Shown here: piece after piece, positions 9,358 to 64,000 of the stretch | Layout: the number at the start of each line of letters is the position of its first letter | Position numbering within the stretch: the first letter of the stretch is position 1 | Assembly (NCBI GenBank): GCA_902790325.1 | Contig: CADARP010000012.1 | Coordinates: 9,475 to 73,474 of the forward strand | Direction: 5' to 3' | Length of the DNA stretch: 64,000 bases | DNA from: Oscillospiraceae bacterium | Lineage (GTDB): Bacteria > Bacillota > Clostridia > Oscillospirales > Acutalibacteraceae | Program-made: the position numbers and the translations under genes | The notes under the pieces: generated by a model | What the model saw: the letters and a program-made list of their open reading frames with translations, nothing else | What the model was told of the DNA's origin: nothing | Databases searched by the model: none

Positions 9358-11823
9358 ATGTCCAAACGTATCCATATGATCTGCAACGCGCATCTCGATC
9401 CCGTCTGGCAGTGGACGTGGGAAGAAGGCGCGGCGGAAACGCTGTCCACGTTCCGCGTGGCGGCGAGGCTCTGCCGGCAGTTTGACGGCTTTGTGTTCAA
9501 CCACAACGAGGCGCTTTTGTACCGCTGGATCGAGGAATTTGAACCGGCGCTGTTCGCCGAGATACAAGCGCTTGTCCGCGAAGGCAAGTGGCACATCATG
9601 GGCGGGTGGCATCTGCAGCCCGACTGCAATATGCCGTCCGGCGAAGGATTTGTGCGGCAGATCATGTCCGGCCGGCAGTATTTCAAGGAGAAATTCGGCA
9701 AGGAGCCGACCACGGCGATCAACTTTGATCCGTTCGGCCACACGCGCGGTCTTGTGCAGATCCTGGCGAAGTCCGGCTTCGACAGCTATCTGTTCGGCCG
9801 TCCCGGGCAAGGCGACACGCCGCTGCCTGCGGATCTGTTCACGTGGGTCGGCTACGACGGCTCGCGCGTGACGGCATACCGCCGCTGGGCGTACAACTCT
9901 CCGCTGGGTAAGGCGGCGAAGAAAGTCGAAGATATTGCGAACGCCTGCGAGGACGGCGGGACGGTGATCTGTCTGTGGGGCGTGGGCGACCACGGCGGCG
10001 GTCCGTCCGAGAAGGATCTGCGCGACATTGCACAGCTGCAGAAGGAGATGCGCGGCGCGGGCGTCGAGCTGATCCACTCCACGCCGGAGGACTTTTTCCG
10101 CGAGGTGCGGGGCAAGGCGCTGCCGGAACACGCGGGCGACCTGAATGCGTGGGCAGTCGGCTGCTACACGAGTATGGCGCGCATCAAGCGGCAGTACCGC
10201 CGCACAGAGAACGACTATTTTATGACCGAGCAGATGGCTGCGGCCGCCGCGGCGCAGGGACTCATGGAATACCCGAAAGACGAGCTGCGCGATGCGATGT
10301 ACGATCTGCTGACCGTGCAGTTCCACGACATTCTGCCCGGTTCCGCCGTCAAGCCGGCCGAAGACGCCGCGCTGCAGATGCTCTCACACGGCGCGGAGAT
10401 TCTGTCCCGTGTGCGCACGCGCGCGTTCTTTGCGCTTTCCGGCGGGCAGAAACCGCATTTGCCGGCGGCGATCCCGATTCTCGTATACAACCCCTTCCCG
10501 TACCCCGTGGAGGGCGATTTTGCCTGTGAGATGATGCTGTGGGATCAGAACTGGGCGGAAGAGTTTTCCGTGCCGCAGGTCATGCGCGACGGAGAAGTCC
10601 TGCCGACGCAGTGCGAGAAGGAGAACAGCAGCATCAATCTCGACTGGCGCAAACGGCCCGTGTTCCACGCGACGCTGCAGCCGATGCAGATGAACCGTTT
10701 CGACTGTGCGTTTACCAAGGCGGAAAAACGCCCCGTGCCCGAAACGCGCGGGGATGCAGACTATTTATATCTCGAAAACGATCGCGTGTGCGTGCGCATC
10801 AGCAAAGCGACCGGCTTCCCGGACAGCTATACGGTCGACGGACGCGAACTGCTCTCGGCGCCGTGCGCGCTGCATGTGGTGCGCGACGACAGCGATCCGT
10901 GGGGGATGTGCGTGCACGCGTTCCCCGACCGCATCGGAACGTTCCGCACATTGACGGCGGAAGAAACGGCGGAGTGGTTCGGCCTTTCCCGTCCGCTCGA
11001 CGCCGTGCACTGTATCGAAAGCGGCGCTGTGCGCACTACGGTTGAAGCCGCGCTCGGCTACGGCCGTTCCCGCGCCGCGGTTCGCTATACGCTGTCTAAG
11101 ACAGACGGTTTGCTGCGCGCGGATATCCATGTGCATTGGTGTGAAACGCAGAAGATGCTGAAATTTGCCGTGCCCGCCGCCCTTCCGCAGGCACGGTGCT
11201 TCGGCGAGGTTGCCTACGGCGAAGAAGCGTTTTCGCAGGACGGACAGGAACACTGCGCGCAGAGATACGTGCGGCTGGAAAACGGCGACGCCGCCCTGTC
11301 CGTGCTGACCGATTCGACCTACGGATTCAGCGCGGAGGACAGCACGCTGTACATGACGCTGCTGCGTTCGGCGGCATACTGCGCGCACCCGATCGGCGAC
11401 CGCGAGCGCATTCCGCAGGATCGTCGGACGGCACATATGGAACAGGGCGAGCGCGATTTTGCTTTTGAACTGTTCGGCGGCAGCGCGGAAACGGTGCGCC
11501 GGCAGACGCCCAGACGCGCGGCGCTGCTGAATACGCACATACCCTCTCTCTCCTTCTATCCGCCGCAGGCGGGCAGAAGGGACGCGCCCGTCTTTACGCT
11601 CGACGGCGACGCGGTTTTGCAGACGGCGTTCAAGCAGGCGGAGGACGGCGACGGCTATATCCTGCGGCTGTTCAATCCGTTCGATATCGTCGCGCAGACC
11701 GTGCTTCGCTCGGACGTGTTCTCACTTTGTGAAACGCTCCGCCTAAACCCGTTTGAGATCCGCACGCTGCGCCTGCAATCCGAAAAATATACCCGGACCG
11801 ATCTCATGGAAAAGGAAAGCTGA
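9358..11823 (+). CDS. Alpha-mannosidase, glycoside hydrolase family 38
   Basis: MICNAHLDPVWQW metal-site motif and GVGDHGGGP motif, about 820 aa. The ATG at 9358 is preceded by AGAGGTG with 6-nt spacing; the track ORF starts at GTG 9349. Confidence 0.8.
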   Translation: MSKRIHMICNAHLDPVWQWTWEEGAAETLSTFRVAARLCRQFDGFVFNHNEALLYRWIEEFEPALFAEIQALVREGKWHIMGGWHLQPDCNMPSGEGFVRQIMSGRQYFKEKFGKEPTTAINFDPFGHTRGLVQILAKSGFDSYLFGRPGQGDTPLPADLFTWVGYDGSRVTAYRRWAYNSPLGKAAKKVEDIANACEDGGTVICLWGVGDHGGGPSEKDLRDIAQLQKEMRGAGVELIHSTPEDFFREVRGKALPEHAGDLNAWAVGCYTSMARIKRQYRRTENDYFMTEQMAAAAAAQGLMEYPKDELRDAMYDLLTVQFHDILPGSAVKPAEDAALQMLSHGAEILSRVRTRAFFALSGGQKPHLPAAIPILVYNPFPYPVEGDFACEMMLWDQNWAEEFSVPQVMRDGEVLPTQCEKENSSINLDWRKRPVFHATLQPMQMNRFDCAFTKAEKRPVPETRGDADYLYLENDRVCVRISKATGFPDSYTVDGRELLSAPCALHVVRDDSDPWGMCVHAFPDRIGTFRTLTAEETAEWFGLSRPLDAVHCIESGAVRTTVEAALGYGRSRAAVRYTLSKTDGLLRADIHVHWCETQKMLKFAVPAALPQARCFGEVAYGEEAFSQDGQEHCAQRYVRLENGDAALSVLTDSTYGFSAEDSTLYMTLLRSAAYCAHPIGDRERIPQDRRTAHMEQGERDFAFELFGGSAETVRRQTPRRAALLNTHIPSLSFYPPQAGRRDAPVFTLDGDAVLQTAFKQAEDGDGYILRLFNPFDIVAQTVLRSDVFSLCETLRLNPFEIRTLRLQSEKYTRTDLMEKES

Positions 11824-11824
11824 T

Positions 11825-12538
11825 ATGGCAAACGAATGGATCCTGTACGGCGTGGACGAGCACGACCCGTACTGCCTCAAAAGTCCGCAAGCGCTGACTG
11901 CGTACATCCGCGAGGTCGGCTTCCTGCCGCTGTTCCGGTGCGGTATTCCGGGCTTTTCCGTCGAGGAACGCACCGTGCCGTACTATTGGTGGAGCGGCGA
12001 CGAGCGGCGCGATCCGTGGGAATGGCGTCGGCTTCTTGCCGCGAAAGGCGAGGTCGCATACGGTAAATTTTTCGACGGAAAAGCGGGCTTTATTTCGACC
12101 GACTGGCTGCCTTACTTTGCCAATTACCGGCGCGACGGTTATGATTTCGACGCGCTGTGGGATGAAGGAAAGGCGACGCACCGCCAGAAAAAGATCATGG
12201 ACTGCTTCGCGGACGGACAGGAGCTGTTCTCCCATGTGACGCGCCGCACGGCGGGGTTCGGCAAGGACGGCGAAAAGAATTTCGAGGGTACGGTCACATC
12301 GCTGCAAATGCAGTTGTATCTCGTGATCCGCGACTTCCGCCAGAAGCGCAATAAGGCGGGTCTGCCGTACGGGTGGCATCTGGCGGTCTACACCATGCCG
12401 GAAACGATCTGGGGATACGACCTGCTGTCGTCGGCGTACGGTGAGGAGCCCGCCGCATCGCGCGAGCGCATCTGCCGCCGCCTGCGCGAGGTATACCCCA
12501 TCGCATCGGATGAAGCGGTACAAAAGCTGTTGGGTTAA
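11825..12538 (+). CDS. Conserved hypothetical protein, possibly an AlkZ/YcaQ-related winged-helix protein
   Basis: The ATG at 11825 lies 1 nt after the GH38 stop. FLPLF...IPGFS...DPWEWR...YGKFF..KAGFIS is reminiscent of AlkZ-related proteins; this is recollection only and not verified. Confidence 0.5.
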   Translation: MANEWILYGVDEHDPYCLKSPQALTAYIREVGFLPLFRCGIPGFSVEERTVPYYWWSGDERRDPWEWRRLLAAKGEVAYGKFFDGKAGFISTDWLPYFANYRRDGYDFDALWDEGKATHRQKKIMDCFADGQELFSHVTRRTAGFGKDGEKNFEGTVTSLQMQLYLVIRDFRQKRNKAGLPYGWHLAVYTMPETIWGYDLLSSAYGEEPAASRERICRRLREVYPIASDEAVQKLLG

Positions 12539-12571
12539 AAGTACACGGACAAATCTTTCGGGAGAGATTGC

Positions 12572-14083
12572 ATGAAGATCATTTGCGGCCGCAAGCACGT
12601 TGTCGGTACGGCGGACAGGATGCTGTACGGCCATTTTTTGGAGCACTTTCACAGGCAGATCTATGCGGGCGTTTTCGATCCGTCCTCGCCGTTCGCCGAT
12701 GAAGACGGGTTCCGGCAGGACGTGCTCGACGCGCTGCGGCGCATCCGTACGCCGATCATTCGCTGGCCGGGCGGATGCTTCGTGTCCGCCTACAACTGGA
12801 AATACGGCGTCGGAAAAGACCGCGTCCCCGTTTATGACAAAGCGTGGCGGGTGGAAGAATCGAACCGGTTCGGCACGGACGAGTTTATAAAGCTCTGCCG
12901 CAAGATCGGCTGTGAGCCGTATATCTGCACCAACGCCGGAACAGGGACTGCCGAGGAGATGAGCGACTGGGTCGAATACTGCAATCTGCGCAGCATGGGC
13001 AGATACGCGAAACAGCGCATCGCAAACGGTTTTTCCGATCCGCACCGTGTACGCTACTGGAGCATCGGCAACGAGAACTGGGGCGCACATGAGATCGGCG
13101 CCAAGGAAGCGCGGGAATGGGGGCGTCTGGTGCGGGAATCCGCCAAAATGATGCTGCGTGTCGATCCGACCATCGAGCTGTCCGCCGCATCCATTCCGGA
13201 TCTCGACTGGAACCTCAACCTTCTGCGGGAAGCGGGACAGTACCTGGACTGGATCTCCATCCACGGTTATTGGGGCAACACGAAAAACGGTACCCTGCCC
13301 GACGATTATGATACAGTCATCCTGCACACGGGTGCAGATATCGCCGGCTCCATCGATCGCGTCCGTGCCTATCTGACGGCGGTCGGGCTGGAAAAGAAGA
13401 TCCGGATCGCATTTGACGAGTGGAATCTGCGCGGGTGGTATCACCCGAATCTGATGGATTCGTGGGACCGCGACAGTCTGTGCGGGGAGGACGAGGCGTT
13501 CTACCGCGACAAGGTGCTCGGCGAGCGCGATAAAAACGATATAAACGCGATTTACACGATGGCGGACGCCGTGTTTTCCGCGTCGTTCCTCAATACATGC
13601 CTGCGCAACTGCGATCTGGTGCGCATGGCGTGCTTCTCGCCCGTCGTCAACACGCGCGGCGCGATCTTTACGCATGCGGACGGGATCGTGCTGCGCCCGC
13701 AGTTCTTCGTTTTTGAGATGTATTCCGGTCTGCTGCGGGACACGGTGCTGCAGCAGTGGAGCGAAGACGTGCCGTCGATCAGCGGACACGCAGATGACGA
13801 GACGAAAACCGTCGATGCGATCGACGTCGTCGTGACGTGCGGCGATAAAGGATATGCCGTCTCCGCCGTCAATAAGGACCCGAAGACAGCACACACGGTC
13901 GAACTGCGCTTCCTCGACGGTACGCCGCGCGAAATGCGGATGCACACGCTGAACGGCCCCTCTCCCGACGCATACAACGACGTCGGGCAGACGCAGGTCG
14001 GTGTGACTGTCGGCACGTGGACGCCGTTTGACGGCACGTTCACACTCCCGCCGCACTCTGTCAATGTGATCGAGCTGCGCTGA
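12572..14083 (+). CDS. abfA: Alpha-L-arabinofuranosidase, glycoside hydrolase family 51
   Basis: GHFLEHFHRQIYAGVFDP, IRWPGGCFVSAYNW and IGNENWG motifs, about 500 aa. Confidence 0.85.
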   Translation: MKIICGRKHVVGTADRMLYGHFLEHFHRQIYAGVFDPSSPFADEDGFRQDVLDALRRIRTPIIRWPGGCFVSAYNWKYGVGKDRVPVYDKAWRVEESNRFGTDEFIKLCRKIGCEPYICTNAGTGTAEEMSDWVEYCNLRSMGRYAKQRIANGFSDPHRVRYWSIGNENWGAHEIGAKEAREWGRLVRESAKMMLRVDPTIELSAASIPDLDWNLNLLREAGQYLDWISIHGYWGNTKNGTLPDDYDTVILHTGADIAGSIDRVRAYLTAVGLEKKIRIAFDEWNLRGWYHPNLMDSWDRDSLCGEDEAFYRDKVLGERDKNDINAIYTMADAVFSASFLNTCLRNCDLVRMACFSPVVNTRGAIFTHADGIVLRPQFFVFEMYSGLLRDTVLQQWSEDVPSISGHADDETKTVDAIDVVVTCGDKGYAVSAVNKDPKTAHTVELRFLDGTPREMRMHTLNGPSPDAYNDVGQTQVGVTVGTWTPFDGTFTLPPHSVNVIELR

Positions 14084-15313: not shown

Positions 15314-15388
15314 TGGCACCCCCTGGGGGAATCGAACCCTCAACTGACCCTTAGGAGGGGCCCGTTATATCCATTTAACTAAGGAGGC
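15314..15388 (-). tRNA. tRNA-Arg (anticodon CCU), CCA encoded
   Basis: Manual cloverleaf on the reverse complement. Acceptor stem GCCUCCU/AGGGGGU, D stem GUUA/UAAC. Anticodon stem GGCCC/GGGUC with loop CUCCUAA. T arm GAGGG-UUCGAUU-CCCCC, then G-CCA. There is a G1-U72 wobble and one A-C mismatch in the T stem. Confidence 0.75.
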
Positions 15389-53171: not shown

Positions 53172-53245
53172 GCGGGTGTAGTTCAATGGCAGAATCCCAG
53201 CCTTCCAAGCTGGTTGTGTGGGTTCGATTCCCATCACCCGCTCCA
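53172..53245 (+). tRNA. tRNA-Gly (anticodon UCC), CCA encoded
   Basis: Acceptor stem GCGGGUG/CACCCGC, anticodon stem CCAGC/GCUGG with loop CUUCCAA, T loop UUCGAUU. Confidence 0.9.
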
Positions 53246-53249
53246 TTTT

Positions 53250-53326
53250 GCGCCTGTAGCTCAGCTGGATAGAGCATCTGCCTTCTAAGCAGAGGGCCAG
53301 GGGTTCGAGTCCCTTCAGGCGCGCCA
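53250..53326 (+). tRNA. tRNA-Arg (anticodon UCU), CCA encoded
   Basis: Acceptor stem GCGCCUG/CAGGCGC, D arm AGCUCAGCUGGAUAGAGC, anticodon loop CUUCUAA, T loop UUCGAGU. Confidence 0.9.
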
Positions 53327-53377: not shown

Positions 53378-53437
53378 AAATCGTTGATAAATAAGGGATT
53401 GCGACGAGCCACAGGTTCAAAATGAATACGTTATACG

Positions 53438-53481
53438 GCGCAGAAGAGCACAATTTGAGGCTTTTCTGCGCTGCTTTTTTT
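53438..53481 (+). terminator. Second terminator-like hairpin inside the island junction
   Basis: 11-bp stem gcgcagaagag / cttttctgcgc (one G-T pair) followed by tgcttttttt. There is no obvious upstream gene for it to terminate. Confidence 0.45.
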
Positions 53482-53498
53482 ATGGGCTTTCGGCAAAA

Positions 53499-53545
53499 TT
53501 GCAACCGGTTGCAGGGGGTTGCAGGGGGTTGCAAGGGGGTTGCAT
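53499..53545 (+). repeat. Helically phased direct-repeat array (5 x TTGCA; core GGTTGCAGGGG) beginning with the palindrome TGCAACCGGTTGCA
   Basis: TTGCA occurs at 53499, 53509, 53519, 53529 and 53540 (spacing 10, 10, 10, 11 bp): ttgcaaccgg ttgcaggggg ttgcaggggg ttgcaaggggg ttgca. An AT-rich tract follows, and the array lies 75 nt upstream of the HTH gene. Confidence 0.85.
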
Positions 53546-53619
53546 TTCAAAAAATTTTAAATTTAGGGGGGAAACATTGGCCGTTTTCGTGTCCGTGTAG
53601 TGGAAGGGAGTGTTTTTTC

Positions 53620-54003
53620 GTGACGGAACGAGATAAATCTATCATCCTTGCTATGCGAGAAAACGGCGAATCATATTCGGAAATTGCGAACGCTCTCCGG
53701 ATTCCTGTCGGAACCGTAAAGGCATTATGCAGCCGCGAAAAGAAAACGGACACGAACGCGGGTGTCCTCTGTCTGACCTGTGGCGCACCAATCCCTGCGT
53801 TATCTCACGGGAAAGCGAAGAGGTTCTGCAGTCGACGCTGCTACAACAAGTGGTGGCACGCAAACCATACCGATCGGACGACGTACAACCGCACCTGCCC
53901 GGTCTGCGGTAAGGTGTTCACCGTCCGATCCAATAAGTGTCAGAAGTATTGCTCGGCAGATTGCTATCAGGCGGCGCGAAAGGCAGGCGGCGAACATGAA
54001 TAA
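53620..54003 (+). CDS. Sigma-70 region-4-like HTH protein with a C-terminal double zinc-ribbon (recombinase-module accessory/regulator)
   Basis: GTG at 53620 after GGAAGGGAG. ENGESYSEIANALRIPVGTVKALCSR is the HTH. CLTCG...CSRRCYNKWWH...CPVCG...YCSADCY are the Cys clusters. The upstream part of the track ORF (53422-53619) reads through the repeat array and is rejected. Confidence 0.7.
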   Translation: MTERDKSIILAMRENGESYSEIANALRIPVGTVKALCSREKKTDTNAGVLCLTCGAPIPALSHGKAKRFCSRRCYNKWWHANHTDRTTYNRTCPVCGKVFTVRSNKCQKYCSADCYQAARKAGGEHE

Positions 54004-54212: not shown

Positions 54213-55511
54213 ATGCAAATCAAAAAACTGCCGACACTTCCGACGCTCCAGAAGAAAAAACAGGTTGCCGCATACGCACGTGTGTCAACGGGCAAGGACG
54301 CAATGCTGCACTCTTTGTCGGCGCAGGTCAGCTATTACAGCGCATACATCCAAAAACAGCCGGAATGGCTGTACTGCGGTGTGTATGTGGACGAAGCGAT
54401 CACAGGGACCAAAACGGAACGACCGGAGTTTCAGCGGCTTCTTGCCGACTGCCGTTCCGGAAAGATCGATATGATCATCACAAAGTCCATTTCCCGCTTT
54501 GCGCGAAACACTGTCACACTGCTTGAAACGGTGCGTGAATTAAAGGCACTTGGCATCGACGTATTTTTTGAAGAGCCGAATATTCACACGTTGAGCGCAG
54601 CCGGTGAAATGATGCTGACGATTCTGGCGTCGGTCGCACAGGAAGAGAGCCGTATGACGAGTGAGCGCATGAAATGGCGCGTGCGGAAGAATTTTGAAGA
54701 AGGCGTTCCATGGAATGTGACGATCCTCGGCTACACTCTACGCAACGGGCGCTTTGTAGTCGTACCGGAAGAAGCCGCGGTCGTGCGTCAGATTTTCGAC
54801 CTGTATATGGAGGGAAAAGGCTACGCCGCTATCGCCGACATACTGAACGCGGCTGACGCGAAAACGCGGTACGGACGCACGTGGAACCACACATCCGTGC
54901 GCTGGGTGCTGCGGAACTACGCCTACACCGGAAACCTTCTCCTGCAGACGACATACTCCGAAAACCATATCACGAAGCGCATGCGTCCAAATACGGGCGA
55001 AATGCCCATGTACCACGCGCAAGGTACACACGAGGCGATCATACCGCAAGAACTCTATGATGCCGTACAGCGCGAAATAGAGCGTCGTGACGCGAAGTAT
55101 TCTGACGCCGATAAACGCAGACAGACGCCGCTGGCGGGAAAAGTGTTCTGCGGCATCTGCGGCAAACGCTGTAGACGTAAGAAACGGCATGATAGGCAGG
55201 TGTGGATTTGCAACACGTTCAACGTGCACGGAAAAGACGCCTGTCCTGCAAGAGCAGTACCGGAGGATATTCTGATGCCGCTGGTTGAGGGCATCGACGT
55301 TGAACGAATTGATATTTGTAATAATAATCTGATCCGGATTCAGACAACCGGCGGTGACGTAGTGGAGCGCACATGGGCGCTGACGTCACGCCGCGACAGT
55401 TGGACACCGGAGATGAGAGAGAAAGCGAGGGAAAGAGCCAATGGCAGTTGTAACCAAAATACCAGCGACGAAAAACAAATTCACGTCGGCGTCGGCATCG
55501 CAAACGCATAA
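54213..55511 (+). CDS. Large serine recombinase 1 (resolvase catalytic domain, recombinase domain, zinc ribbon)
   Basis: VAAYARVSTGKD (catalytic Ser), IDMIITKSISRFARNT, recombinase-domain YGRTWNHTSVRWVLRNYAYTG, zinc ribbon CGICGKRC...CNTF...CP. Confidence 0.9.
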   Translation: MQIKKLPTLPTLQKKKQVAAYARVSTGKDAMLHSLSAQVSYYSAYIQKQPEWLYCGVYVDEAITGTKTERPEFQRLLADCRSGKIDMIITKSISRFARNTVTLLETVRELKALGIDVFFEEPNIHTLSAAGEMMLTILASVAQEESRMTSERMKWRVRKNFEEGVPWNVTILGYTLRNGRFVVVPEEAAVVRQIFDLYMEGKGYAAIADILNAADAKTRYGRTWNHTSVRWVLRNYAYTGNLLLQTTYSENHITKRMRPNTGEMPMYHAQGTHEAIIPQELYDAVQREIERRDAKYSDADKRRQTPLAGKVFCGICGKRCRRKKRHDRQVWICNTFNVHGKDACPARAVPEDILMPLVEGIDVERIDICNNNLIRIQTTGGDVVERTWALTSRRDSWTPEMREKARERANGSCNQNTSDEKQIHVGVGIANA

Positions 55512-57021
55512 ACGCCGCGTCGCCGCATACGCCCGTGTATCCACGGATAAGGACGAGCAGCTCACCAGCTATAAGGCGCAGGTGGACTATTACAAAAAAT
55601 ACATTCAGAACAACGATGAGTGGGAATACGTCGATGTGTATGCAGACGAAGGCATCACGGGGACGAGCACGAAAAGCCGTAAGAGATTTAACGAAATGAT
55701 CGCCGACGCGCTTGCCGGAAAGATCGACTTGATTATCACAAAATCGGTTTCCCGTTTCGCTCGGAACACGGTGGACACGCTCGTCAACATCCGCAAGCTG
55801 AAAGATGCCGGTGTCGAGTGTTTTTTTGAAGAACAGGGCATTTGGACGTTCGATAGCACGGGTGAACTGATGATCACTATGCTCTCCTCTATCGCACAGG
55901 AAGAAGCCCGCAATATTTCCGAGAACGTTACATGGGGACACCGTAAGCGGTTTGAGGACGGCAAGATTATGCTGGCGTACAAACGCTTTCTCGGTTATGA
56001 CCGTGGTGAAGATGGTAAGCCGGTCATCAATCCGGAAGAAGCTGAGATTGTACGTCAGATTTACAGATGGTTTATTGAAGGCAAGACGCCGTTCATGATC
56101 TGTAAGGAATTGGAGGCGCTGGGGATTAAAACGCCCGGTGAGAAAGAGAAATGGGGGCGGAGTACGGTTATCAGTATTCTCTCCAATGAAAAATACAAAG
56201 GTGATGCCCTGTTGCAGAAGAGCTTCACGGTGGATTTCCTGACGAAAAAGACCAAAAAGAATGAGGGGGAAGTTCCGCAGTATTACGTCGAGGGCAGCCA
56301 TCCTGCCATTATCAATCCGAAGGAATGGGATTATGTGCAGGCGGAACTTGCCCGCCGCAAAATCATCGGTAAAGCGTACAGTGGTACGAGTGTATTCTCT
56401 TCTCGATTGGTCTGCGCCGACTGCGGTGATTTCTTCGGGCAGAAAGTATGGCACTCCACTGATGCGTACAGAAAAGAGATATGGCGATGCAACCACAAAT
56501 TTGACGGCGATAAGCAATGCAGCACGCCACACCTTGTCGTGGAGCAGATTCAGGCTCTATTTCTGCAGGCGTACAACGAACTGATGCGTGATCGCAGTCA
56601 GGTGATCGCCGACTGTGGAGTTATGCGTGACGCTCTTTTGGATACTACAGACATTCAGAAGCAGATCGCAAAGGTCGATGAGGAGATGGAGATCACCGCA
56701 GCTTTGGTCGCTGCCGCCGTCAAAGAGAACGCAACGTTGCCTCAGTCGCAGGAAGAATACAATGAGAAATATGCTGCGCTTGAGGAACGGTTCTTGGAAC
56801 AGAAAGACAAACGCGCCGCCCTTGAGGCGAAGATCGCAGAACGAAAAGCGAGAGCGCATGAACTGGATTTGTTCACATACGCTCTCGCGGAAAGTGATTT
56901 AATTGTGTCAGAGTGGGATGAACAGTTGTGGTTGACACTGATCGAAAAAGGCACTGTCCTGCCGGAAGGCAGCATCAGTTTTCTGTTCAAAAACGGAACG
57001 GAGATATTGGCGGCAATGTAA
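55441..57021 (+). CDS. Large serine recombinase 2 (with a C-terminal coiled coil)
   Basis: VAAYARVSTDKDEQ, IDLIITKSVSRFARNT, WGRSTVISILSNEKYKGD, zinc ribbon CADCG...CNHKF...C. Its start overlaps recombinase 1 by 71 nt. Confidence 0.9.
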   Translation: MAVVTKIPATKNKFTSASASQTHKRRVAAYARVSTDKDEQLTSYKAQVDYYKKYIQNNDEWEYVDVYADEGITGTSTKSRKRFNEMIADALAGKIDLIITKSVSRFARNTVDTLVNIRKLKDAGVECFFEEQGIWTFDSTGELMITMLSSIAQEEARNISENVTWGHRKRFEDGKIMLAYKRFLGYDRGEDGKPVINPEEAEIVRQIYRWFIEGKTPFMICKELEALGIKTPGEKEKWGRSTVISILSNEKYKGDALLQKSFTVDFLTKKTKKNEGEVPQYYVEGSHPAIINPKEWDYVQAELARRKIIGKAYSGTSVFSSRLVCADCGDFFGQKVWHSTDAYRKEIWRCNHKFDGDKQCSTPHLVVEQIQALFLQAYNELMRDRSQVIADCGVMRDALLDTTDIQKQIAKVDEEMEITAALVAAAVKENATLPQSQEEYNEKYAALEERFLEQKDKRAALEAKIAERKARAHELDLFTYALAESDLIVSEWDEQLWLTLIEKGTVLPEGSISFLFKNGTEILAAM

Positions 57022-57420: not shown

Positions 57421-57852
57421 TCAAGGGTTTGCAGCAACATTCTTCTCATACAAGAATTGTAAATCCTGTAATACGCGCTTCTCCAGTAATTCTTGATCAC
57501 CTCCAGCGGAATTAATAATGTCTCTCAGCTTTTTGAATCCGGACTCAGCACACCGTTCTGCTTCATCGTAATTGATTTCGCGATTTGCATATCGATCGAT
57601 GTCGTCTTTATTTTCTGGGATCCCAAGCAAAATTGAAGCAAACAGTGCAAGGTCATATGATTTAATGTTTTTGAGCAAGAAATACCCGTCTTTTTTTCCT
57701 TTCATTTCTTCTGGTGAGTCTAAACCAAGTGCCGTTGCTAAAAGGAAGATGTCTTTTGCGTCCATCATATGCATCCCAAGTGTATTGTTTTCATTGCACT
57801 CATGAAGCAGACCATCTCGCAGGGAACTATTGATGAAAATTCTATCACGCAT
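57421..57852 (-). CDS. Hypothetical protein, DndE-sized and possibly DndE-like (143 aa from ATG 57852; the track ORF extends to 57960)
   Basis: The ATG at 57852 overlaps the last codons and TGA of the upstream ATPase gene (GATGCGTGA), which suggests translational coupling. It sits directly after a DndD-like gene, as dndE does. KKDGYFLLKNI...LALFASILLG is loosely reminiscent of DndE; this is recollection and needs an HMM check. Confidence 0.45.
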   Translation of the reverse strand: MRDRIFINSSLRDGLLHECNENNTLGMHMMDAKDIFLLATALGLDSPEEMKGKKDGYFLLKNIKSYDLALFASILLGIPENKDDIDRYANREINYDEAERCAESGFKKLRDIINSAGGDQELLEKRVLQDLQFLYEKNVAANP

Positions 57853-59872
57853 CGCCTTTACCAATCCCTTCAATTTGTTCTTCGTTATCAGAGAGTGCAA
57901 TATCTCGAATAGATGCTGCTCTTTCATCGTAAAGACTTTGGACTTCATTGGAGTATTCATCCGGAGTGAAAAGCATAATAATCTGCTTATACCTCGAAAC
58001 CTTTAAGAGTTCCGCAGCCATGTTTGCGCGATTTGAATCGGAAACCCTTCCCAATGGTGAGTCGACAACAAGGGGACAGTTTTTGCCTGATGCATCATGA
58101 ATTGCGAGAGTAAAAGAATATGCCAATGCCATGTATTCTGTAGCACTCAAGGAACCAGTCATCTGATTACCTTGCATATTATATACAGTTAATTCATATT
58201 TGTCGTTGATGTCGATTTTTCCAAAGGTATTCTTTTTCCAAATCATGGCGTTGAAACGTTCCCAAGTCTGACGCTGAATGTCCTCTTTGATCTCATCCAT
58301 AATGGCTTTTTCGACAGCGTCGTACTGTGAATTCAGAGTTCTAAAGGCGACCACTTCCCTCGACAACAGATCTTTCCTTTGCCTCTTTTCCTCAATTTTA
58401 CCTCTCTCCGCTATTTTTGTGGCTAAAGTTTCAGAGAGCCTTTTAATATCACTTTGGTTCAATGCCAGACGTTGTTGCAAAGATACAAGCTCATCGTTTG
58501 CATTTTTGCGTTCTGATTCTATTTTTCGTACGTCAATTCCGCCACTTTCGTCAGAGTATCGAGCTAAAAAAGCGCTTATATCATCGAGAGCCTTTTGTGT
58601 TTCTGCGATGGTTTCGGTATAATAATTATCTCGTTTCACCAGCTTTTTATATTCAGATGGGAACTCTTTGCAGCGGGCGATAATTGTTTCAAGGCCCCCT
58701 TTAATCTCCATCAGAAAATTTGATGTCGCTGAAGAAACATCCAACTCATCTAATAGCTTTTGCAAGTGCTGAATGGCCTTTTCATCAAGTGCGCCGTTGC
58801 AGATAGGACAGAATTTTGCATGATCAGATAGCAGAGATTGAATCTGCTCTTTATCGATATTGGGTGGTAATGTGCCTGCATTTTGCTTTTCGTGAATTAG
58901 GTCTAATGCAAACTTCACGCGCGGATAAAAACTTAGAAGCGTCCAGTATGTAGTAATAAATGCGTTTTTCTCCGCAATAAAGCTTTCATAATCGCTTTGG
59001 AGTTCTTTTAGCTCTTTACTCAAGGCTAACCGTTTTCCGATGTTTAGCCTAATAGGTGCGTATCCTTGCAAAGTTGCGTCTGCATCTGCAATTATACGTC
59101 GTAGTTCAGGCAACCGAGCTTCAATCTCGCTGTTTTGTGCCTTAAGATCGGATATTTTTCCTTCAAGAATGCGGATTTCGTCTGCTAAATCCGGAGCGCT
59201 TTCCTTCCCCAGTTTGGTAGCTTGCCGATACTTTTCATCGGCCATTGTACGCACATGATTGCTGGCGTTCCTCAAAAGCGTAACTTGCGAAATGTTGAAA
59301 ATTGAAGACTTTATCTTTTCGGACTTTTCGCTTGTAAAGTAGCTTTTTAGGTTTTCACCATCAAAGAAGTAGTAGTCATAAATTGCCTCATCGAAGTATT
59401 GCTTAACGATACTTTGAACTTCAGCTTCATCTTCGATAACAACAGAGTTCGCAGCGCTGTCGGTTGGGGTCTTGATTACCTTCAACTTTGACTGCCCTGG
59501 TCGTGCGCTTTTTGCATTGGTCAGGGGACTTTCAATCACGAAGAAAGATTGAGTGCGTTCAAATACTATGATTTCCCCGTCATTGTTCAAGGTCAAGCGG
59601 GCAGTAACGCTAAGCGAGTCTTTTGGATTTGAGCGCTGAACGAGTGCACTGTTAACTATAGGAAGCGCTTTATCTTTGTCACTCAGATAATGCTCTGACG
59701 CATAAAGACACCAGAGAATGCCATTTAGAAAAGTTGTTTTTCCCGTTCCGTTTTTTGCGCGAAGAATGTGCAAATCACAGTCCTCTCCACTTTGGAAGGA
59801 CACATTAACAGACCTGTACTGGCGATAGTTTTCAAATTCAACTTTAGTTATTCTGATCATCACTATCACCAT
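57845..59872 (-). CDS. SMC/Rad50-like ABC ATPase of the DndD type
   Basis: N-terminal IRITKVEFENYRQY, Walker A AKNGTGKTTFLNGILWCLY and FFDGE. A long coiled-coil middle contains CPICNG (hook-like CxxC, residues 355-358). LSATEYMALAYSF is the ABC signature. Walker B/D-loop PLVVDSPLGRVSDSNR is followed by QIIMLFTPDE. The alternative start ATG 59860 gives MIRITKV. Confidence 0.75.
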   Translation of the reverse strand: MVIVMIRITKVEFENYRQYRSVNVSFQSGEDCDLHILRAKNGTGKTTFLNGILWCLYASEHYLSDKDKALPIVNSALVQRSNPKDSLSVTARLTLNNDGEIIVFERTQSFFVIESPLTNAKSARPGQSKLKVIKTPTDSAANSVVIEDEAEVQSIVKQYFDEAIYDYYFFDGENLKSYFTSEKSEKIKSSIFNISQVTLLRNASNHVRTMADEKYRQATKLGKESAPDLADEIRILEGKISDLKAQNSEIEARLPELRRIIADADATLQGYAPIRLNIGKRLALSKELKELQSDYESFIAEKNAFITTYWTLLSFYPRVKFALDLIHEKQNAGTLPPNIDKEQIQSLLSDHAKFCPICNGALDEKAIQHLQKLLDELDVSSATSNFLMEIKGGLETIIARCKEFPSEYKKLVKRDNYYTETIAETQKALDDISAFLARYSDESGGIDVRKIESERKNANDELVSLQQRLALNQSDIKRLSETLATKIAERGKIEEKRQRKDLLSREVVAFRTLNSQYDAVEKAIMDEIKEDIQRQTWERFNAMIWKKNTFGKIDINDKYELTVYNMQGNQMTGSLSATEYMALAYSFTLAIHDASGKNCPLVVDSPLGRVSDSNRANMAAELLKVSRYKQIIMLFTPDEYSNEVQSLYDERAASIRDIALSDNEEQIEGIGKGDA

Positions 59873-60032
59873 CCATTTCCTTTAGGTAATCAATAACCAG
59901 CCGCTCATATGTTTCCTTGAACCTATGATTCCCCTTATCCTCTTCTTCAAGAATGGCGAGCATAAGCATTTTTAGATCTTCCGGCACATCGAGCGCAACA
60001 ATTTTTTCAAATATCTTCTCACTGATAGGCAT
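59844..60032 (-). CDS. Small acidic protein (62 aa), unknown function
   Basis: The ORF overlaps the helicase stop by 14 nt and the ATPase start by 17-29 nt, so it fills the junction exactly. The C-terminus is DGDSDDQNN. No family recognised. Confidence 0.45.
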   Translation of the reverse strand: MPISEKIFEKIVALDVPEDLKMLMLAILEEEDKGNHRFKETYERLVIDYLKEMDGDSDDQNN

Positions 60033-62106
60033 CTTCGCTTACCCCGTTTCTTTTAAAGATTTCAATCACTTCATCTCGGTTTATTGCGTTATCTGCGATT
60101 TGCATTGCGCGACGGAATTCTTTTTGGAGGATCCTAATATCTATTTCACTACCACTGGACGGGCTGACAATTAAATCATAGATGTGAGAAAAGGATTTTC
60201 CTTTGCATGGCCTAATAACCCTACCAACTCTTTGGACGAATTCTCGTGGATTTGTGCTGCTTGCCATCAAAATTGCAATTCTTGCTGTGGTAATATCGAT
60301 TCCTTCGTCCAAACATTTGATTCCTATCAGAACTTGCACACGCCCATTTCTAAACTGATCAATGGCTTCTTGCCGCTCTGTATTGCCATGGACGCCTACT
60401 TTTTTCGAGGCCGATATTTCTTCAGTGATTTTGCAACGTGATATTTCGTGACTACTGAGCATATTCAGTAGAGGGGACACCTGTTTATCTGTTGCAAAAA
60501 TAATTGTGTCTTTGATGCGAGACTCATTATTGAGCTGTAAAACAATCTCTTCAACAGACGCGAGTTTCATTTCTGCATTCTTTAAGATATTAGCTCTTCG
60601 AATCAGGAGCATGTTCAAACGCTCAACGTCAACTTCTTCCGCAGAAGAAACAACGGCAATCTCACGGCTCAACTTCGAATAGTCTCTACACTCTGATTCT
60701 GACAGTTCAACAAAAACAGGATGATAATAGAACGGATTAAGAAACGGCTTTCCGGTTAAAGGATTAATTGTTCCCAACGCGTCTTTAATTGTGAATTCAA
60801 ATGATTGATTGCCGAAATACTCCCGAATAATACTGGTTCCATATTCATCAAACATGCGTTCCGGTGTTGCACTTAATCCAACACGATAGCGGTATATATC
60901 TAATAATGCCTGTTTCTGATGATCTGAGCCAATAGCATGAACTTCGTCGCAGATAAACATAATTTCCGCTTTGCCATGATTCTTGCTGATGATTTCAATA
61001 AAAGCGTTGCTCGAAACCGTATTATGCGTTGTGTATACTATCGCATTTTTATAACGATCTGCGTTAAGATCTAATAAGCATATTTCAAGATCCTTTTTCC
61101 ACCTGGGATTACTCCCGTCGATAATACGCGAACGATCACTTTCAATACCAAGTGATTCGATATCCGTTTGCCACTGCCGTGACAAGGTGTTTTGCGGAGT
61201 CGCAATAATCACGAGAAGCCTCTTGGTATGCGAAAGAAGAGTCAGCATGCATCCAATTGCTGTCCTCGTTTTTCCTGTTCCAGTTGCCATCTCCATGAGG
61301 AGACTACGGTCGTTTTCAAGCCATTTATTCACAGCCTTTTGCTGATGGCTAAATAGCGAAATCTCATTTACTTTTTCTTTTTGTCTATCCCTGTATTTTT
61401 TCATTATTGAGAGATCGCTCACATTGCGTGGCGCCACCTCAATAATCTTGTGTGTTATTGACTCAGGAATGGTATATACAGCTGCAACATCGTCCCTTTC
61501 GCCATTCCAAAACTCATTAAATTTTTTTAAATCAGCAAGCAAATACTCTCTTTGACCAGGTTCCCATGATTTGAACGTTTTGAATTCCTCAATGTTACTT
61601 AACCATGCTTGCGCAGACTCATTGATCGACCCACTGAAAGATATCATGTCTCCATTAGAATCGTAACCAATACCAATCTTTTGGTGGAATAAACTATCTG
61701 ACGAATGTCGGTCAACGACGATTTTAATATCGAGTTTTTTATTTGCCAGTAACCAAGCGAGGGCTTGTAAGTTGTCCAATTGTTTAAATGCTTCTATATC
61801 GAACTGCTGAAAAAAAGAAAGCGCTTCAGGTGCGACATTCGATTGGGATTCTCTTAGAACGCGTGCGTCCTGCTCCGATAACCGTGGAGAAATCAGTAGA
61901 CGCATAAACCCGCCATTTCGTATTAACCCTTCTATCCCTTTTGAAGCGACGGCAAGACTGCTGCTGCTAAAGAATCCTGCAATCCGGAAATATTGCTTCG
62001 TCTGCTCAAGCATCGGAATGTAAAAAGCGTCAAGAAGCTGAGAACGATCGCTGGATGTTTCATAGCTGATTTTTATATCCAGATTTCTGTAACCCATCAT
62101 TGCCAC
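60019..62106 (-). CDS. PLD-family (HKD) nuclease domain fused to an SF2 DEAH-box helicase (ResIII plus Helicase_C)
   Basis: The HKD motif FHQKIGIGYDSNGDMISFSGSINES is at residues 140-164 (nt about 61621-61686). Helicase motif I MATGTGKT (274-281), motif II ICDEVH (385-390), motif III GLSATPER, motif VI QRVGRVIRP. An in-frame ATG at 62100 forms an ATGA overlap with the upstream stop and may be the true start. Confidence 0.85.
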   Translation of the reverse strand: MAMMGYRNLDIKISYETSSDRSQLLDAFYIPMLEQTKQYFRIAGFFSSSSLAVASKGIEGLIRNGGFMRLLISPRLSEQDARVLRESQSNVAPEALSFFQQFDIEAFKQLDNLQALAWLLANKKLDIKIVVDRHSSDSLFHQKIGIGYDSNGDMISFSGSINESAQAWLSNIEEFKTFKSWEPGQREYLLADLKKFNEFWNGERDDVAAVYTIPESITHKIIEVAPRNVSDLSIMKKYRDRQKEKVNEISLFSHQQKAVNKWLENDRSLLMEMATGTGKTRTAIGCMLTLLSHTKRLLVIIATPQNTLSRQWQTDIESLGIESDRSRIIDGSNPRWKKDLEICLLDLNADRYKNAIVYTTHNTVSSNAFIEIISKNHGKAEIMFICDEVHAIGSDHQKQALLDIYRYRVGLSATPERMFDEYGTSIIREYFGNQSFEFTIKDALGTINPLTGKPFLNPFYYHPVFVELSESECRDYSKLSREIAVVSSAEEVDVERLNMLLIRRANILKNAEMKLASVEEIVLQLNNESRIKDTIIFATDKQVSPLLNMLSSHEISRCKITEEISASKKVGVHGNTERQEAIDQFRNGRVQVLIGIKCLDEGIDITTARIAILMASSTNPREFVQRVGRVIRPCKGKSFSHIYDLIVSPSSGSEIDIRILQKEFRRAMQIADNAINRDEVIEIFKRNGVSEDAYQ

Positions 62107-62792
62107 CTTATTTGATCTTTAAGCGGAAGATCCTCAAGTATTAGGTTCATAATAATCTCATTATTATGTTTCCTTCTAATAATCGTTTGCCCAGAAAGTG
62201 CAACTGATACAGTATCAATATAAGACGCATATCCGTTCGTCTTTGCTTCGTAGATTAGTGTTTTAATCAATGGATTTCTTACCGCTAACCGTTTGATTAG
62301 TTCGTGCTTTTCCTCGACAGATAGCATTGTAGACACACTGCCTAATGAAGATATTCGCACCATATTACATTTTCGATCTGGCTCTCGTCCAATAAGAACA
62401 AGAGTGAGCATCGCGGCAGTTTTGGCATGGTTTTCTCCGTATTTGATACATGCATACTGCTGTGATGCGTGTGTTAGCCTTTGACCGGCCTCTTCGTAAG
62501 AAAGCCGATTTTCTTCAAATTCCAAAATGGTGCACAACGTGTCTGTCGCATCATCGAGTTTGCTGTATTGGAAAATATCTTTTGGCGATAACGGATAAGG
62601 ATGGTTGATGGCGTCGAGTAACCTTAAAATAGGAATTGAAAGCAATAACCTTATTGCCTCAACAACATCATCGTTATCACCCACGGTTAGTGTTTCTAAA
62701 GATTCTGGTGAATAGTCGAGATACTGTTGTAAAAAAACATTTTCTTTTTCCGTGTTTCCTGTCGCCAAAAGCCAATCCCTATAAAAGCTCAT
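62097..62792 (-). CDS. Hypothetical protein (231 aa), no recognisable family
   Basis: The ORF is tightly packed between the radical SAM and PLD-helicase genes (19-nt gap upstream, overlapping stop/start downstream). The AT-rich codon usage matches its neighbours. Confidence 0.6.
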   Translation of the reverse strand: MSFYRDWLLATGNTEKENVFLQQYLDYSPESLETLTVGDNDDVVEAIRLLLSIPILRLLDAINHPYPLSPKDIFQYSKLDDATDTLCTILEFEENRLSYEEAGQRLTHASQQYACIKYGENHAKTAAMLTLVLIGREPDRKCNMVRISSLGSVSTMLSVEEKHELIKRLAVRNPLIKTLIYEAKTNGYASYIDTVSVALSGQTIIRRKHNNEIIMNLILEDLPLKDQIRWQ

Positions 62793-62811
62793 AGTCCTTG
62801 CCTCGGTATCT

Positions 62812-63987
62812 TTAATCTTTCATATGAAGATCCTGATAATCTTCATATCGCAAATCAAAGTATCTTTCTGCGATTTCTGGGTGCTTTGCCTCAAAATCAA
62901 GCATTGCTTTATATGATGAGCACAGTGTCCCCTCGGTTTTGTGAAGTTTCTGATTTTCTTCGCAAAAACGTCTGAAGCTCATTTTTTTATATATGCTCGG
63001 CTGGTTGCCCCAACGTGCAATGGCAATATACATACCGGCGTATTCGGACTCTTTCCATGGCTTATAGTTTTTGTCTTGATAACGCATGATATAAGGGAGA
63101 CACTGATAATGCATTAACAATTCCAGCCGCTTGAAACAGTTTTCAATGTCAATCGCATCCGTTCCTTCAAAACCAACAAGAACATAAAACTTGATATTCC
63201 GTGCTTTGGAGTATCTTCTGATCATCTCAAGTTTTTGCTTGATCAGTTCATAATCTGCGATATTATCAAATGCGAAAGTATAGTCTCCGTCGTATTTTGC
63301 CGCAAACAGTATTTTACATTTTTCATCTGTTAAAAGTCTCTCGTCGAGCCCTTGCTTGAATTTAAATGGGTACCCAGTATTGATTAACTGCTGAAGTAGT
63401 TCCCTCCAGTTTGGATAGCCGAGAAAATTGTCATCCAATAAGCAAATTGCCCTGCGGTTTCTGTCAAAAAACTCATCAAGGGGACTACTTGGGAAAACAT
63501 GGTCGTATTTTTTGTTTACGCAGAACTCACATTTCCGAAAACATCCGCGAGTTAAGAATCCTATACTATAGTCCGTATACTCTTTGAACTTAACCAGGAA
63601 AGCCTTTCTGTTAAAGGACTCGCCCCTCTCTTGTTCTGCTTTTCTTACTTCACTTTCAATCCATTCATCATACAGAGTATAATCAGGCATGTGGTGTTCG
63701 ATTCTCGGATCGAGGTTGGGTGCTTTGTCAAAAAAGAATCCCGTCCCTCCATAGCTCACTTTATCCCTATCCTCCATATAGTGCTGTATCCATTCAGGAA
63801 CGGGGGTATCTGTAAACACCTTTGAAATATAAATATGATCGTATTCGTGTATATCCACTTGTTGTAAAATTAATGTAACTTCAGCACCTTGCTCCTTCCA
63901 GTATCCAGATATCTTCTCACATATGAGGTTTGGAAAACGGTGCTTTTTTCTGCCTATTAAATCGGCGTCTATGATTCCTATTTTCAT
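62812..63987 (-). CDS. Radical SAM enzyme with an N-terminal roughly 140-aa Rossmann/B12-binding-like domain
   Basis: The canonical 4Fe-4S/SAM motif GFLTRGCFRKCEFCV (C149-x3-C153-x2-C156; nt 63520-63543) follows the N-terminal domain MKIGIIDADL.... The ATG at 63987 has GGGAAGTGA upstream. Only 13 nt of upstream sequence are in the window. Confidence 0.8.
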   Translation of the reverse strand: MKIGIIDADLIGRKKHRFPNLICEKISGYWKEQGAEVTLILQQVDIHEYDHIYISKVFTDTPVPEWIQHYMEDRDKVSYGGTGFFFDKAPNLDPRIEHHMPDYTLYDEWIESEVRKAEQERGESFNRKAFLVKFKEYTDYSIGFLTRGCFRKCEFCVNKKYDHVFPSSPLDEFFDRNRRAICLLDDNFLGYPNWRELLQQLINTGYPFKFKQGLDERLLTDEKCKILFAAKYDGDYTFAFDNIADYELIKQKLEMIRRYSKARNIKFYVLVGFEGTDAIDIENCFKRLELLMHYQCLPYIMRYQDKNYKPWKESEYAGMYIAIARWGNQPSIYKKMSFRRFCEENQKLHKTEGTLCSSYKAMLDFEAKHPEIAERYFDLRYEDYQDLHMKD

Positions 63988-64000
63988 CTGGTCACTTCCC

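Follow-up and report, generated by a model that had tools for sequence, protein, structure and literature searches.

How is self DNA marked for a PbeABCD restriction module when none of the modification genes known to accompany it is found nearby? This question is raised by a locus at positions 57,421 to 64,000 of the window, i.e., the whole stretch of 64,000 nucleotides of an Oscillospiraceae bacterium (contig CADARP010000012.1) analyzed here. Six minus-strand genes, named g1 to g6 in their order of transcription (Table 1), encode a radical S-adenosylmethionine (SAM) enzyme (g1), a partner protein (g2), and four proteins that correspond to PbeA, PbeB, PbeC, and PbeD (g3 to g6). We propose that g1 and g2 form a radical-SAM DNA-modification module that would mark self DNA for PbeABCD, a proposal on which we stand midway between belief and doubt. 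The whole locus is best explained as a self-contained, horizontally mobile, restriction-modification-like cassette.

The PbeABCD effector genes

The six genes are coupled into a single operon, which is located on an AT-rich island. The first-pass annotation, made from the sequence of the window, had read them in this way, and both the coordinates and the junction overlaps were confirmed: g1 and g2 are separated by a 19-nt gap with GAGG upstream, g2 and g3 share an ATGA (62097-62100), and overlaps of 14 nt, 29 or 17 nt, and 8 nt follow at the g3/g4, g4/g5, and g5/g6 junctions. The GC content of the operon (0.38-0.43) is lower than that of the recombinase region (0.50-0.52) and of the host (~0.60), as had also been noticed. 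Since strong homologs were found for each of the six open reading frames (ORFs), all of them are real genes and not chance ORFs. The ATG start was taken for g3 (alternatives, GTG at 62106 and ATG at 62097). For g6, gene callers on identical metagenome contigs also chose the 143-aa reading, whose ATG overlaps the g5 stop, and not the longer 179-aa reading from 57960.

By sequence, g3 to g6 are PbeABCD, alias the CxC ABC-ATPase-DndE system, since PbeA, PbeC, and PbeD are identified by hidden Markov model (HMM) or profile matches and PbeB by its position, size, and synteny. The g3 product, an HKD nuclease fused to a helicase, matched PADLOC PbeA over its full length (1.4e-196, residues 7-680) and also TIGR04095 dnd_restrict_1 (1.5e-100, 337 bits for a cut-off of 600), in agreement with the "dnd restriction" type first ascribed to it. 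Its Pfam matches were ResIII, Helicase_C, and a weak PLDc_2, and the motifs HQKIGIGYD...GSINES (HxK...GSxN) and DEVH are present in the sequence. A link to DISARM, suggested at first, was dropped, as no DrmA/B/C-type match was found and PbeA was a far better match. The small acidic g4 product matched no HMM in the Pfam, NCBIfam, and PADLOC scans and was found by tblastn in 15 syntenic loci at 33-53% identity. The gene overlaps both neighbors, and its size, charge, and slot between pbeA and pbeC fit PbeB, which is about 60-70 aa long (66 aa in H. jeotgali; PMC6459918) and has been described as a "rapidly evolving small disordered protein" (PMC10853773).

The ATPase encoded by g5 carries a Walker A motif and a DSPLG motif, together with the FFDGE, CPIC, and DSPLGRVSDSNR motifs on which an initial comparison with DndD was founded. 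Part of that comparison stands, g5 being a relative of DndD, but its sequence places it as PbeC, in a sister clade of DndD: it matched PADLOC PbeC over its full length at 2e-82 versus 1.1e-32 for DndD, it reached 96.3 bits with TIGR03185 (DndD), under the cut-off of 245.85, and it scored 102 bits with the PbeC and 66 bits with the DndD encoded by a Ruegeria plasmid (L088). The CxxC at its coiled-coil apex, invariant in 21 homologs, agrees with the zinc hook by which the "CxC ABC-ATPase" clade is defined (PMC10853773). This hook lies at window positions 58799-58810 (pbeC residues 355-358) and has the same spacing in 21/21 PbeC homologs linked to the radical SAM gene, whereas the dnd-linked PbeC of the Ruegeria plasmid has CxC (KCICG); the CxxC versus CxC spacing may be a clade marker. 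The CxC system was reportedly first described by Krishnan et al. in 2020.

The g6 product matched nothing in single-sequence HMM scans of Pfam, NCBIfam, and PADLOC. A profile built from 15 syntenic homologs aligned over 112 columns with seven bona fide PbeD proteins (hhalign 97.7%, E 2.3e-12), versus a probability of 0.2% with two Rhodobacterales DndE proteins, for which the alignment is very shallow. Hence g6, at first noted for its DndE-like size and its place in the dndE position, is PbeD, whose usual length (about 125-170 aa) and slot directly behind pbeC it shares, and shows no detectable likeness to canonical DndE in that shallow alignment; a remote homology between PbeD and DndE has been asserted (PMC10853773).

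PbeABCD received its name from Xiong et al. (2019, Nat Commun; PMC6459918), who tested it in haloarchaea and found that all four pbe genes were required and that protection depended on host phosphorothioation by DndCDEA. It was re-annotated by the Aravind laboratory as CxC ABC-ATPase-DndE, methylase-linked variants included (PMC10853773). Neither of these two papers mentions a radical SAM partner of Pbe. Among the Pbe loci compared here, dndCDE and a cysteine desulfurase gene lie directly upstream of pbeA in L088 and L089, a DNA methylase gene overlaps the pbeA start in an Aurantiacibacter plasmid (L092), and a methylase gene follows pbeD in a Haloprofundus plasmid (L087). In the operon and the flanks examined, by contrast with classical Dnd (DndABCDE), no DndB, DndC (PAPS-reductase-like), or DndA/IscS was detected. 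The absence of sulfur-insertion genes from the visible locus, part of the first-pass description, thus held, and it extended past position 64000: neither a dnd gene nor a methylase gene was found in the window or in the 6.7 kb further upstream on L001, the longest matching metagenome contig.

The locus therefore shares with DndCDEA-PbeABCD the same four overlapping effector genes in the same order (with a PbeD of ~145 aa), and differs from it in having g1 and g2 coupled upstream and no DndC/D/E/A nearby, as well as in its type of host (gut or rumen anaerobes versus haloarchaea or aerobes). Like the methylase-linked PbeABCD loci of L092 and L087, it has no dnd genes and possesses an alternative putative modification gene; the methylase of L092, although a conventional SAM-dependent DNA methyltransferase, occupies exactly the slot of g1-g2 at the pbeA start. 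Solitary Pbe loci without dnd genes were already known to be common; only the g1-g2 partner is new. The gene combination had initially been taken for an unnamed one, which holds for g1-g2 and not for g3-g6, which are a published system.

The radical SAM enzyme and its partner protein

The g1 product is a radical SAM enzyme, as first proposed, on the basis of its fold and of its invariant cysteines. The CxxxCxxC motif (CFRKCEFC; C149, C153, and C156) is invariant in 30 homologs, and so are C23, C182, C296, and C342. In the AlphaFold (AF2) model (predicted local distance difference test score [pLDDT] 88, predicted template modeling score [pTM] 0.84), an N-terminal Rossmann-like domain (residues ~1-82) and a helical linker precede a (beta/alpha)6 core (~140-305) of six alternating strands and helices (residues 140-302), with the cysteine motif just after the strand at 140-143, and the C-terminal domain is helical (residues 310-385 all helix). 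The best Foldseek matches in the PDB were MiaB (7mjz, E 7e-7), CysS (9n1d), RimO (2qgq), and SuiB, with a probability of 1.00 for MiaB, CysS, and RimO. In PHROG, g1 matched phrog_9298 "radical SAM domain protein" (3.6e-50). No family was found in the Pfam, NCBIfam, or PADLOC scans; PF04055 was not matched by g1 and reached 20.5 bits, for a cut-off of 29.5, with a distant relative (P0141). Matches to Herpes_ORF32, TnsA, and the MiaB-like TIGR01578 (12.5 bits, cut-off 315) were noise.

With MiaB/RimO and CysS, g1 has in common a Rossmann/flavodoxin-like N-terminal domain followed by the (beta/alpha)6 core, and its VLVGFEG motif resembles the IVGFPGE of this group. It differs from the group by a sequence identity of ~12%, by its helical C terminus, and by a context pointing to DNA and not to tRNA. 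A MiaB-type methylthiotransferase was ruled out: only C23 is invariant within residues 1-100, where a MiaB-type enzyme needs an auxiliary-cluster triad of cysteines, and there is no TRAM domain. Since these auxiliary-cluster cysteines are missing, C-methylation or another C-H functionalization would be likelier than MiaB-type thiolation, and cobalamin-dependent C-methylation is allowed by the Rossmann-like N-terminal domain and the similarity to CysS.

These structural matches also bear on another explanation, in which PbeABCD would be an ordinary solitary or Dnd/methylase-dependent system with its modification genes elsewhere, g1-g2 being a hitchhiking module, either a MiaB-like RNA/tRNA modifier or an anti-restriction function of the element. 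The best matches of g1 are indeed methylthiotransferases of tRNA and of a ribosomal protein, 320/553 (58%) of PbeAC pairs have no nearby dnd genes (about half of those being near a methylase gene; PMC6459918), many g1 loci have no Pbe genes, and the rest of the host genome is outside our data. Nevertheless, g1 has neither the cysteine triad nor the TRAM RNA-binding domain of MiaB, g1-g2 sit exactly in the methylase slot of L092, and the ATGA coupling of g2 to pbeA goes with a gene order conserved in 26 loci of multiple phyla with unrelated flanks. We therefore regard a hitchhiking g1-g2 as unlikely.

The g1 family is large, with 5,813 homologs by word-index search (the top 120 at at least 67% identity) and 1,769 clusters at 50% identity by exhaustive search. 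The fusion partners of long homologs were uninformative, save for a C5-methylase tail and a LAGLIDADG insert. The former corresponds to the P0168 gene call, in which the C-terminal part of a C5 methylase is fused to g1; the latter to P0174 (734 aa) and to plasmid LC711081.1 (24554-25036), where g1 homologs are interrupted by a LAGLIDADG/intein-type homing element.

The g2 product had 41 homologs by word-index search and no match in Pfam, NCBIfam, PADLOC, or PHROG; PDB sequence-profile searches with g1, g2, or g6 gave no match either. Its AF2 model (pLDDT 95.6) is mostly helical with a winged-helix-like core at residues ~96-147, and KYGENHxK, RLxxRN, and TxxRRxxN are invariant motifs. Fold searches of the PDB and BFVD gave nothing significant, the best matches being ROQ and MarR winged helices (E 0.04-0.2). 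We propose from this modeled fold that g2 may be a DNA-binding, specificity, or coupling subunit. Across loci, identity is 60-70% for g1 and ~30% for g2, the g2 and Pbe proteins ranging from 30 to 55%. This pattern agrees with constraint on a catalytic subunit and diversification of the specificity and effector parts.

Comparative architectures and the proposed DNA mark

One genome per species was scanned, yielding 80 loci that encode g1 relatives, and their architectures were resolved by tblastn and all-against-all clustering of neighboring ORFs. These loci belong to Clostridia, Negativicutes, Bacteroidota-associated bins, Fibrobacter, Sphaerochaeta, Verrucomicrobiota, Myxococcota, Mollicutes, and an archaeal bin; plasmids also carry g1 relatives. 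All the hosts encountered are strict anaerobes, judging from organism names, which is consistent with an oxygen-labile enzyme. The g2 gene is co-linear with g1 in 39/80 loci and is absent from the phage-type loci.

Four architectures were distinguished. Architecture A, g1-g2-PbeA-(B)-PbeC-PbeD, is that of the window; it occurs in several phyla, in 26 of the 80 loci plus a truncated one, and is tightly packed (median gaps of 10, -8.5, and -1 nt). Co-occurrence of the genes, suggested as a check by the first-pass annotation, is thus recurrent. Its flanks vary between other defense-type genes and housekeeping genes: directly upstream of ten architecture-A cassettes, we found genes for a Schlafen-like helicase, PIN, AAA_15, or GTPase proteins or housekeeping genes, and no dnd or methylase gene. 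In the Dialister loci (L037-L040 and L046), the gene directly upstream of g1 encodes a ~1,090-aa protein with an RNA-polymerase alpha-C-terminal-domain-like part and sigma70 region 4. The dnd- and methylase-linked Pbe loci L088, L089, and L092 encode, beside pbeABCD, a "sigma factor-like HTH DNA-binding protein" that is comparable in size and in the order of its domains, the similarity between the two types being weak and confined to the helix-turn-helix (HTH; E 8e-5).

Architecture B (12 loci) consists of g1, a ParB-like gene, a gene for a 135-aa protein, an SNF2 helicase gene, a second ParB-like gene, and g2, and represents an unnamed six-gene candidate system. In L006 (10001-15734), it encodes a ParB_N-like protein (~334 aa), a ZorD/DpdE-like SNF2 helicase (1e-47), and a second ParB_N-like protein, and it adjoins PDC-S61, hence lies in a defense island; it was also seen in L009, L011, L014, L020, L021, L024, L028, L031, and L057 and, permuted, in L063 and L073. 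Architecture C, which is not the arrangement of the window, comprises g1, g2, and a GmrSD_N+HNH nuclease in five loci (L004 at 10001-13892, L007, L010, L016, and L029), the nuclease being a 675-aa GmrSD_N (DUF262) and HNH protein. It recalls SspABCD-SspE in joining a modification module to a mark-sensing SspE-type effector, but its nuclease has no SspE match in PADLOC and no Ssp modification genes are present. In the g1 tree, architectures A, B, and C are interleaved while the phage copies form one clade; therefore, nuclease modules have been swapped repeatedly around a conserved g1(+g2) core. The association of g1+g2 with Pbe, GmrSD-type, or ParB-SNF2 modules is what one would expect of a modification core whose restriction modules can be exchanged.

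Architecture D corresponds to 21 loci in phage genomes, where g1 stands alone between the replication and packaging modules. A DNA methyltransferase gene (C5 or ParB-N4/N6 fusion) is its immediate neighbor in 16 of the 19 loci that could be evaluated, and SAM-synthetase-like, PAPS-reductase-like, and amidoligase genes are often close by. A truncated SAM-synthetase-like gene (PF00438 N-terminal domain only, 260 aa) and PAPS-reductase-domain genes flank g1 in phage loci L051, L053, L059, and L084 and also in L071, L076, L080, and L083. Altogether, the neighborhood of phage g1 looks like a compact "DNA modification island". Among deposited phages, g1 relatives are carried by Oscillospiraceae phage NatCom_21982, Clostridium tetani phiCT453B, and Bacteroides LoVEphage with its kin, and further ones occur in Methanomassiliicoccales viruses and a Marinitoga virus. 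Phage thymidine hypermodification, in which a radical SAM enzyme acts on DNA after replication (Lee et al. 2018, 2021; PMC5889632, PMC8989533), provides a phage-encoded precedent for a DNA substrate. That pathway differs in depending on 5-hydroxymethyldeoxyuridine (5-hmdU), its kinase and aGPT-Pplase partners are absent here, and no homology was detected in any search.

In the mechanism that we propose, g1 and g2 would fill the slot held by DndCDEA or a DNA methyltransferase in other Pbe loci and act as the self-marking module. The 5'-deoxyadenosyl radical derived from SAM at the [4Fe-4S] cluster of g1 would put a covalent mark on host DNA, with g2 contributing DNA binding, sequence specificity, or coupling of g1 to the effectors. 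PbeC, with its zinc hook, and PbeD would scan or clamp DNA, PbeA would attack or block unmarked DNA through its HKD nuclease and SF2 translocase, and the small acidic PbeB would serve as a regulator, the mark thus being presumably read by PbeABCD. Phages carrying g1 alone beside methylase genes would mark their own DNA and evade restriction. This reading is favored because the effector was shown elsewhere to require a host DNA mark and the visible locus contains none of the known marking enzymes, because g1 is coupled in the methylase/Dnd slot and is paired with two other restriction-type modules, and because the phage orthologs are embedded in DNA-methylase clusters. The early suggestion of a modification supplied by the radical SAM enzyme thus came out of the comparative analysis as the best-supported hypothesis, held with evenly balanced confidence.

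Several points weigh against marking of DNA by g1-g2. The proposal is built on gene context and a modeled fold, and no DNA-acting enzyme is among the nearest structural relatives of g1, whose substrates are RNA (MiaB, RimO) or small molecules and peptides (CysS, SuiB). The g2 product could be a plain transcription regulator. GmrSD-type nucleases are usually modification dependent, and self-marking fits architecture C only if the host mark is sensed, as by SspE. A dnd cluster or a cognate methylase gene could sit elsewhere in the host genome.

A conserved core with swappable effectors is also a hallmark of sensor-effector defense. Accordingly, g1-g2 may instead constitute a sensing, signaling, or regulatory module, in which g2 would be a transcription factor or trigger sensor and g1 would make a small molecule, either a viperin-like analog or a signal, that inhibits the phage or switches on the effectors. 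The sole fold signal of g2 is a winged helix, and radical SAM defense without DNA modification exists, as in viperins and in Ophion (bioRxiv 10.1101/2025.09.30.679545), a system of different make-up (radical SAM, PHP, and PRTase). A viperin-type function ranks low, however, because g1 has no match in PADLOC, where defense radical SAM families are included; phage g1 lies in methylase/SAM-synthetase clusters and not in defense loci, conserved partners of a small-molecule pathway, such as a nucleotide kinase, are missing, and PbeABCD is a complete machine that was gated by a DNA mark where tested (PMC6459918). Such a sensing role appears improbable to us. Far more doubtful still is a decaying, nonfunctional remnant that the island passively carries along. 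That solitary Pbe clusters might be inactive was considered by Xiong et al. (PMC6459918), but the six ORFs are intact with conserved Walker A, DEVH, HKD, and CxxxCxxC motifs, identical copies occur on several independent contigs, and the arrangement is kept across phyla.

Marking of DNA by g1-g2 could be carried further, and more tentatively, to a general statement. The g1 protein might found a DNA-modifying radical SAM family, widespread in bacteria of the gut and rumen that are strict anaerobes, in archaea, and in their phages, whose novel covalent mark, for example a C-methyl/alkyl or other C-H-functionalized base or sugar, possibly cobalamin dependent, would be a self label for at least three restriction modules (PbeABCD, GmrSD-like, and ParB-SNF2) and an anti-restriction device in phages, with g2 as a new specificity or coupling subunit. 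We lean slightly against this wider claim. The g1-g2 partner and its association with three effectors were not found in PADLOC v2 or in the searchable literature, whose coverage is incomplete and in which no system combining a radical SAM enzyme with Pbe, DndD, or DUF262 was found. If g1-g2 do mark DNA, they would add a third type of partner to the phosphorothioation and methylation enzymes associated with PbeABCD, and would be the first restriction-modification-type system with a radical-SAM modification step, as far as we found. They would also imply a novel DNA modification common in anaerobic gut microbiomes and phages, with consequences for sequencing-based epigenomics, phage host range, gut phage therapy, and enzymology. 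The family lends itself to direct testing because it is present in cultured phages (C. tetani phiCT453B and the Bacteroides phages LoVEphage/BI-TP1/PV4-TP1 and relatives). Even without a DNA mark, the combination of a g1-g2 core and any of three nuclease modules that replace one another would constitute unnamed candidate defense systems.

The island and its flanking genes

The operon lies beside a tRNA pair followed by the gene of an HTH/treble-clef protein and two large serine recombinase genes (Table 1), and is therefore within an integrated element, in line with the island insertion first described. This tRNA-recombinase-operon arrangement is common to three metagenome contigs.

Table 1. 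Genes of the operon and features at the recombinase end of the island (window positions)
Feature	Position	Strand	Length (aa)	Matches or method
g1, radical SAM enzyme	62812-63987	minus	391	
g2, partner protein	62097-62792	minus	231	
g3 (pbeA), HKD (phospholipase D-type) nuclease + superfamily 2 (SF2) DExH helicase	60019-62100	minus		
g4 (pbeB), small acidic protein	59844-60032	minus	62	
g5 (pbeC), ABC ATPase with zinc hook	57845-59872	minus	675	
g6 (pbeD), cognate of "DNA phosphorothioation-associated protein 4"	57421-57852	minus	143	
tRNA-Gly(tcc)	53172-53245	plus		ARAGORN
tRNA-Arg(tct)	53250-53326	plus		ARAGORN
HTH/treble-clef protein	53422-54003	plus	193	Sigma70_r4_2; phrog_2308 (5.5e-28)
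Large serine recombinase 1	54213-55511	plus		Pfam Resolvase, Recombinase, Zn_ribbon_recom
Large serine recombinase 2	55441-57021	plus		Pfam Resolvase, Recombinase, Zn_ribbon_recom

The tandem recombinase genes overlap by 71 nt, and gene callers placed a small SHOCT_2 ORF on L001 between the HTH gene and the first of them. A further tRNA-Arg(cct) at 15314-15388 (minus strand) belongs to the host part of the window and has no connection with the island. Within the operon, scans for promoters and terminators did no better than on shuffled sequence; an extended -10 promoter that looks plausible is located in the 354-nt gap 5' of g1, outside the window. At its far end, the island extends past both the window and L001.

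The HTH/treble-clef protein of the island falls into the same ORF cluster (F17) as the product of the gene directly upstream of g1 in several phage-type loci (L047, L048, L050, and L067). This shared cluster hints that the island and its cassette descended from such phages. Past window position 64000, the segment 1014-6338 of L001 encodes a protein of 1,009 aa that weakly matched Fic and an SRAP-domain protein of 144 aa, along with several small ORFs, and these upstream genes may be further defense or toxin cargo of the island.

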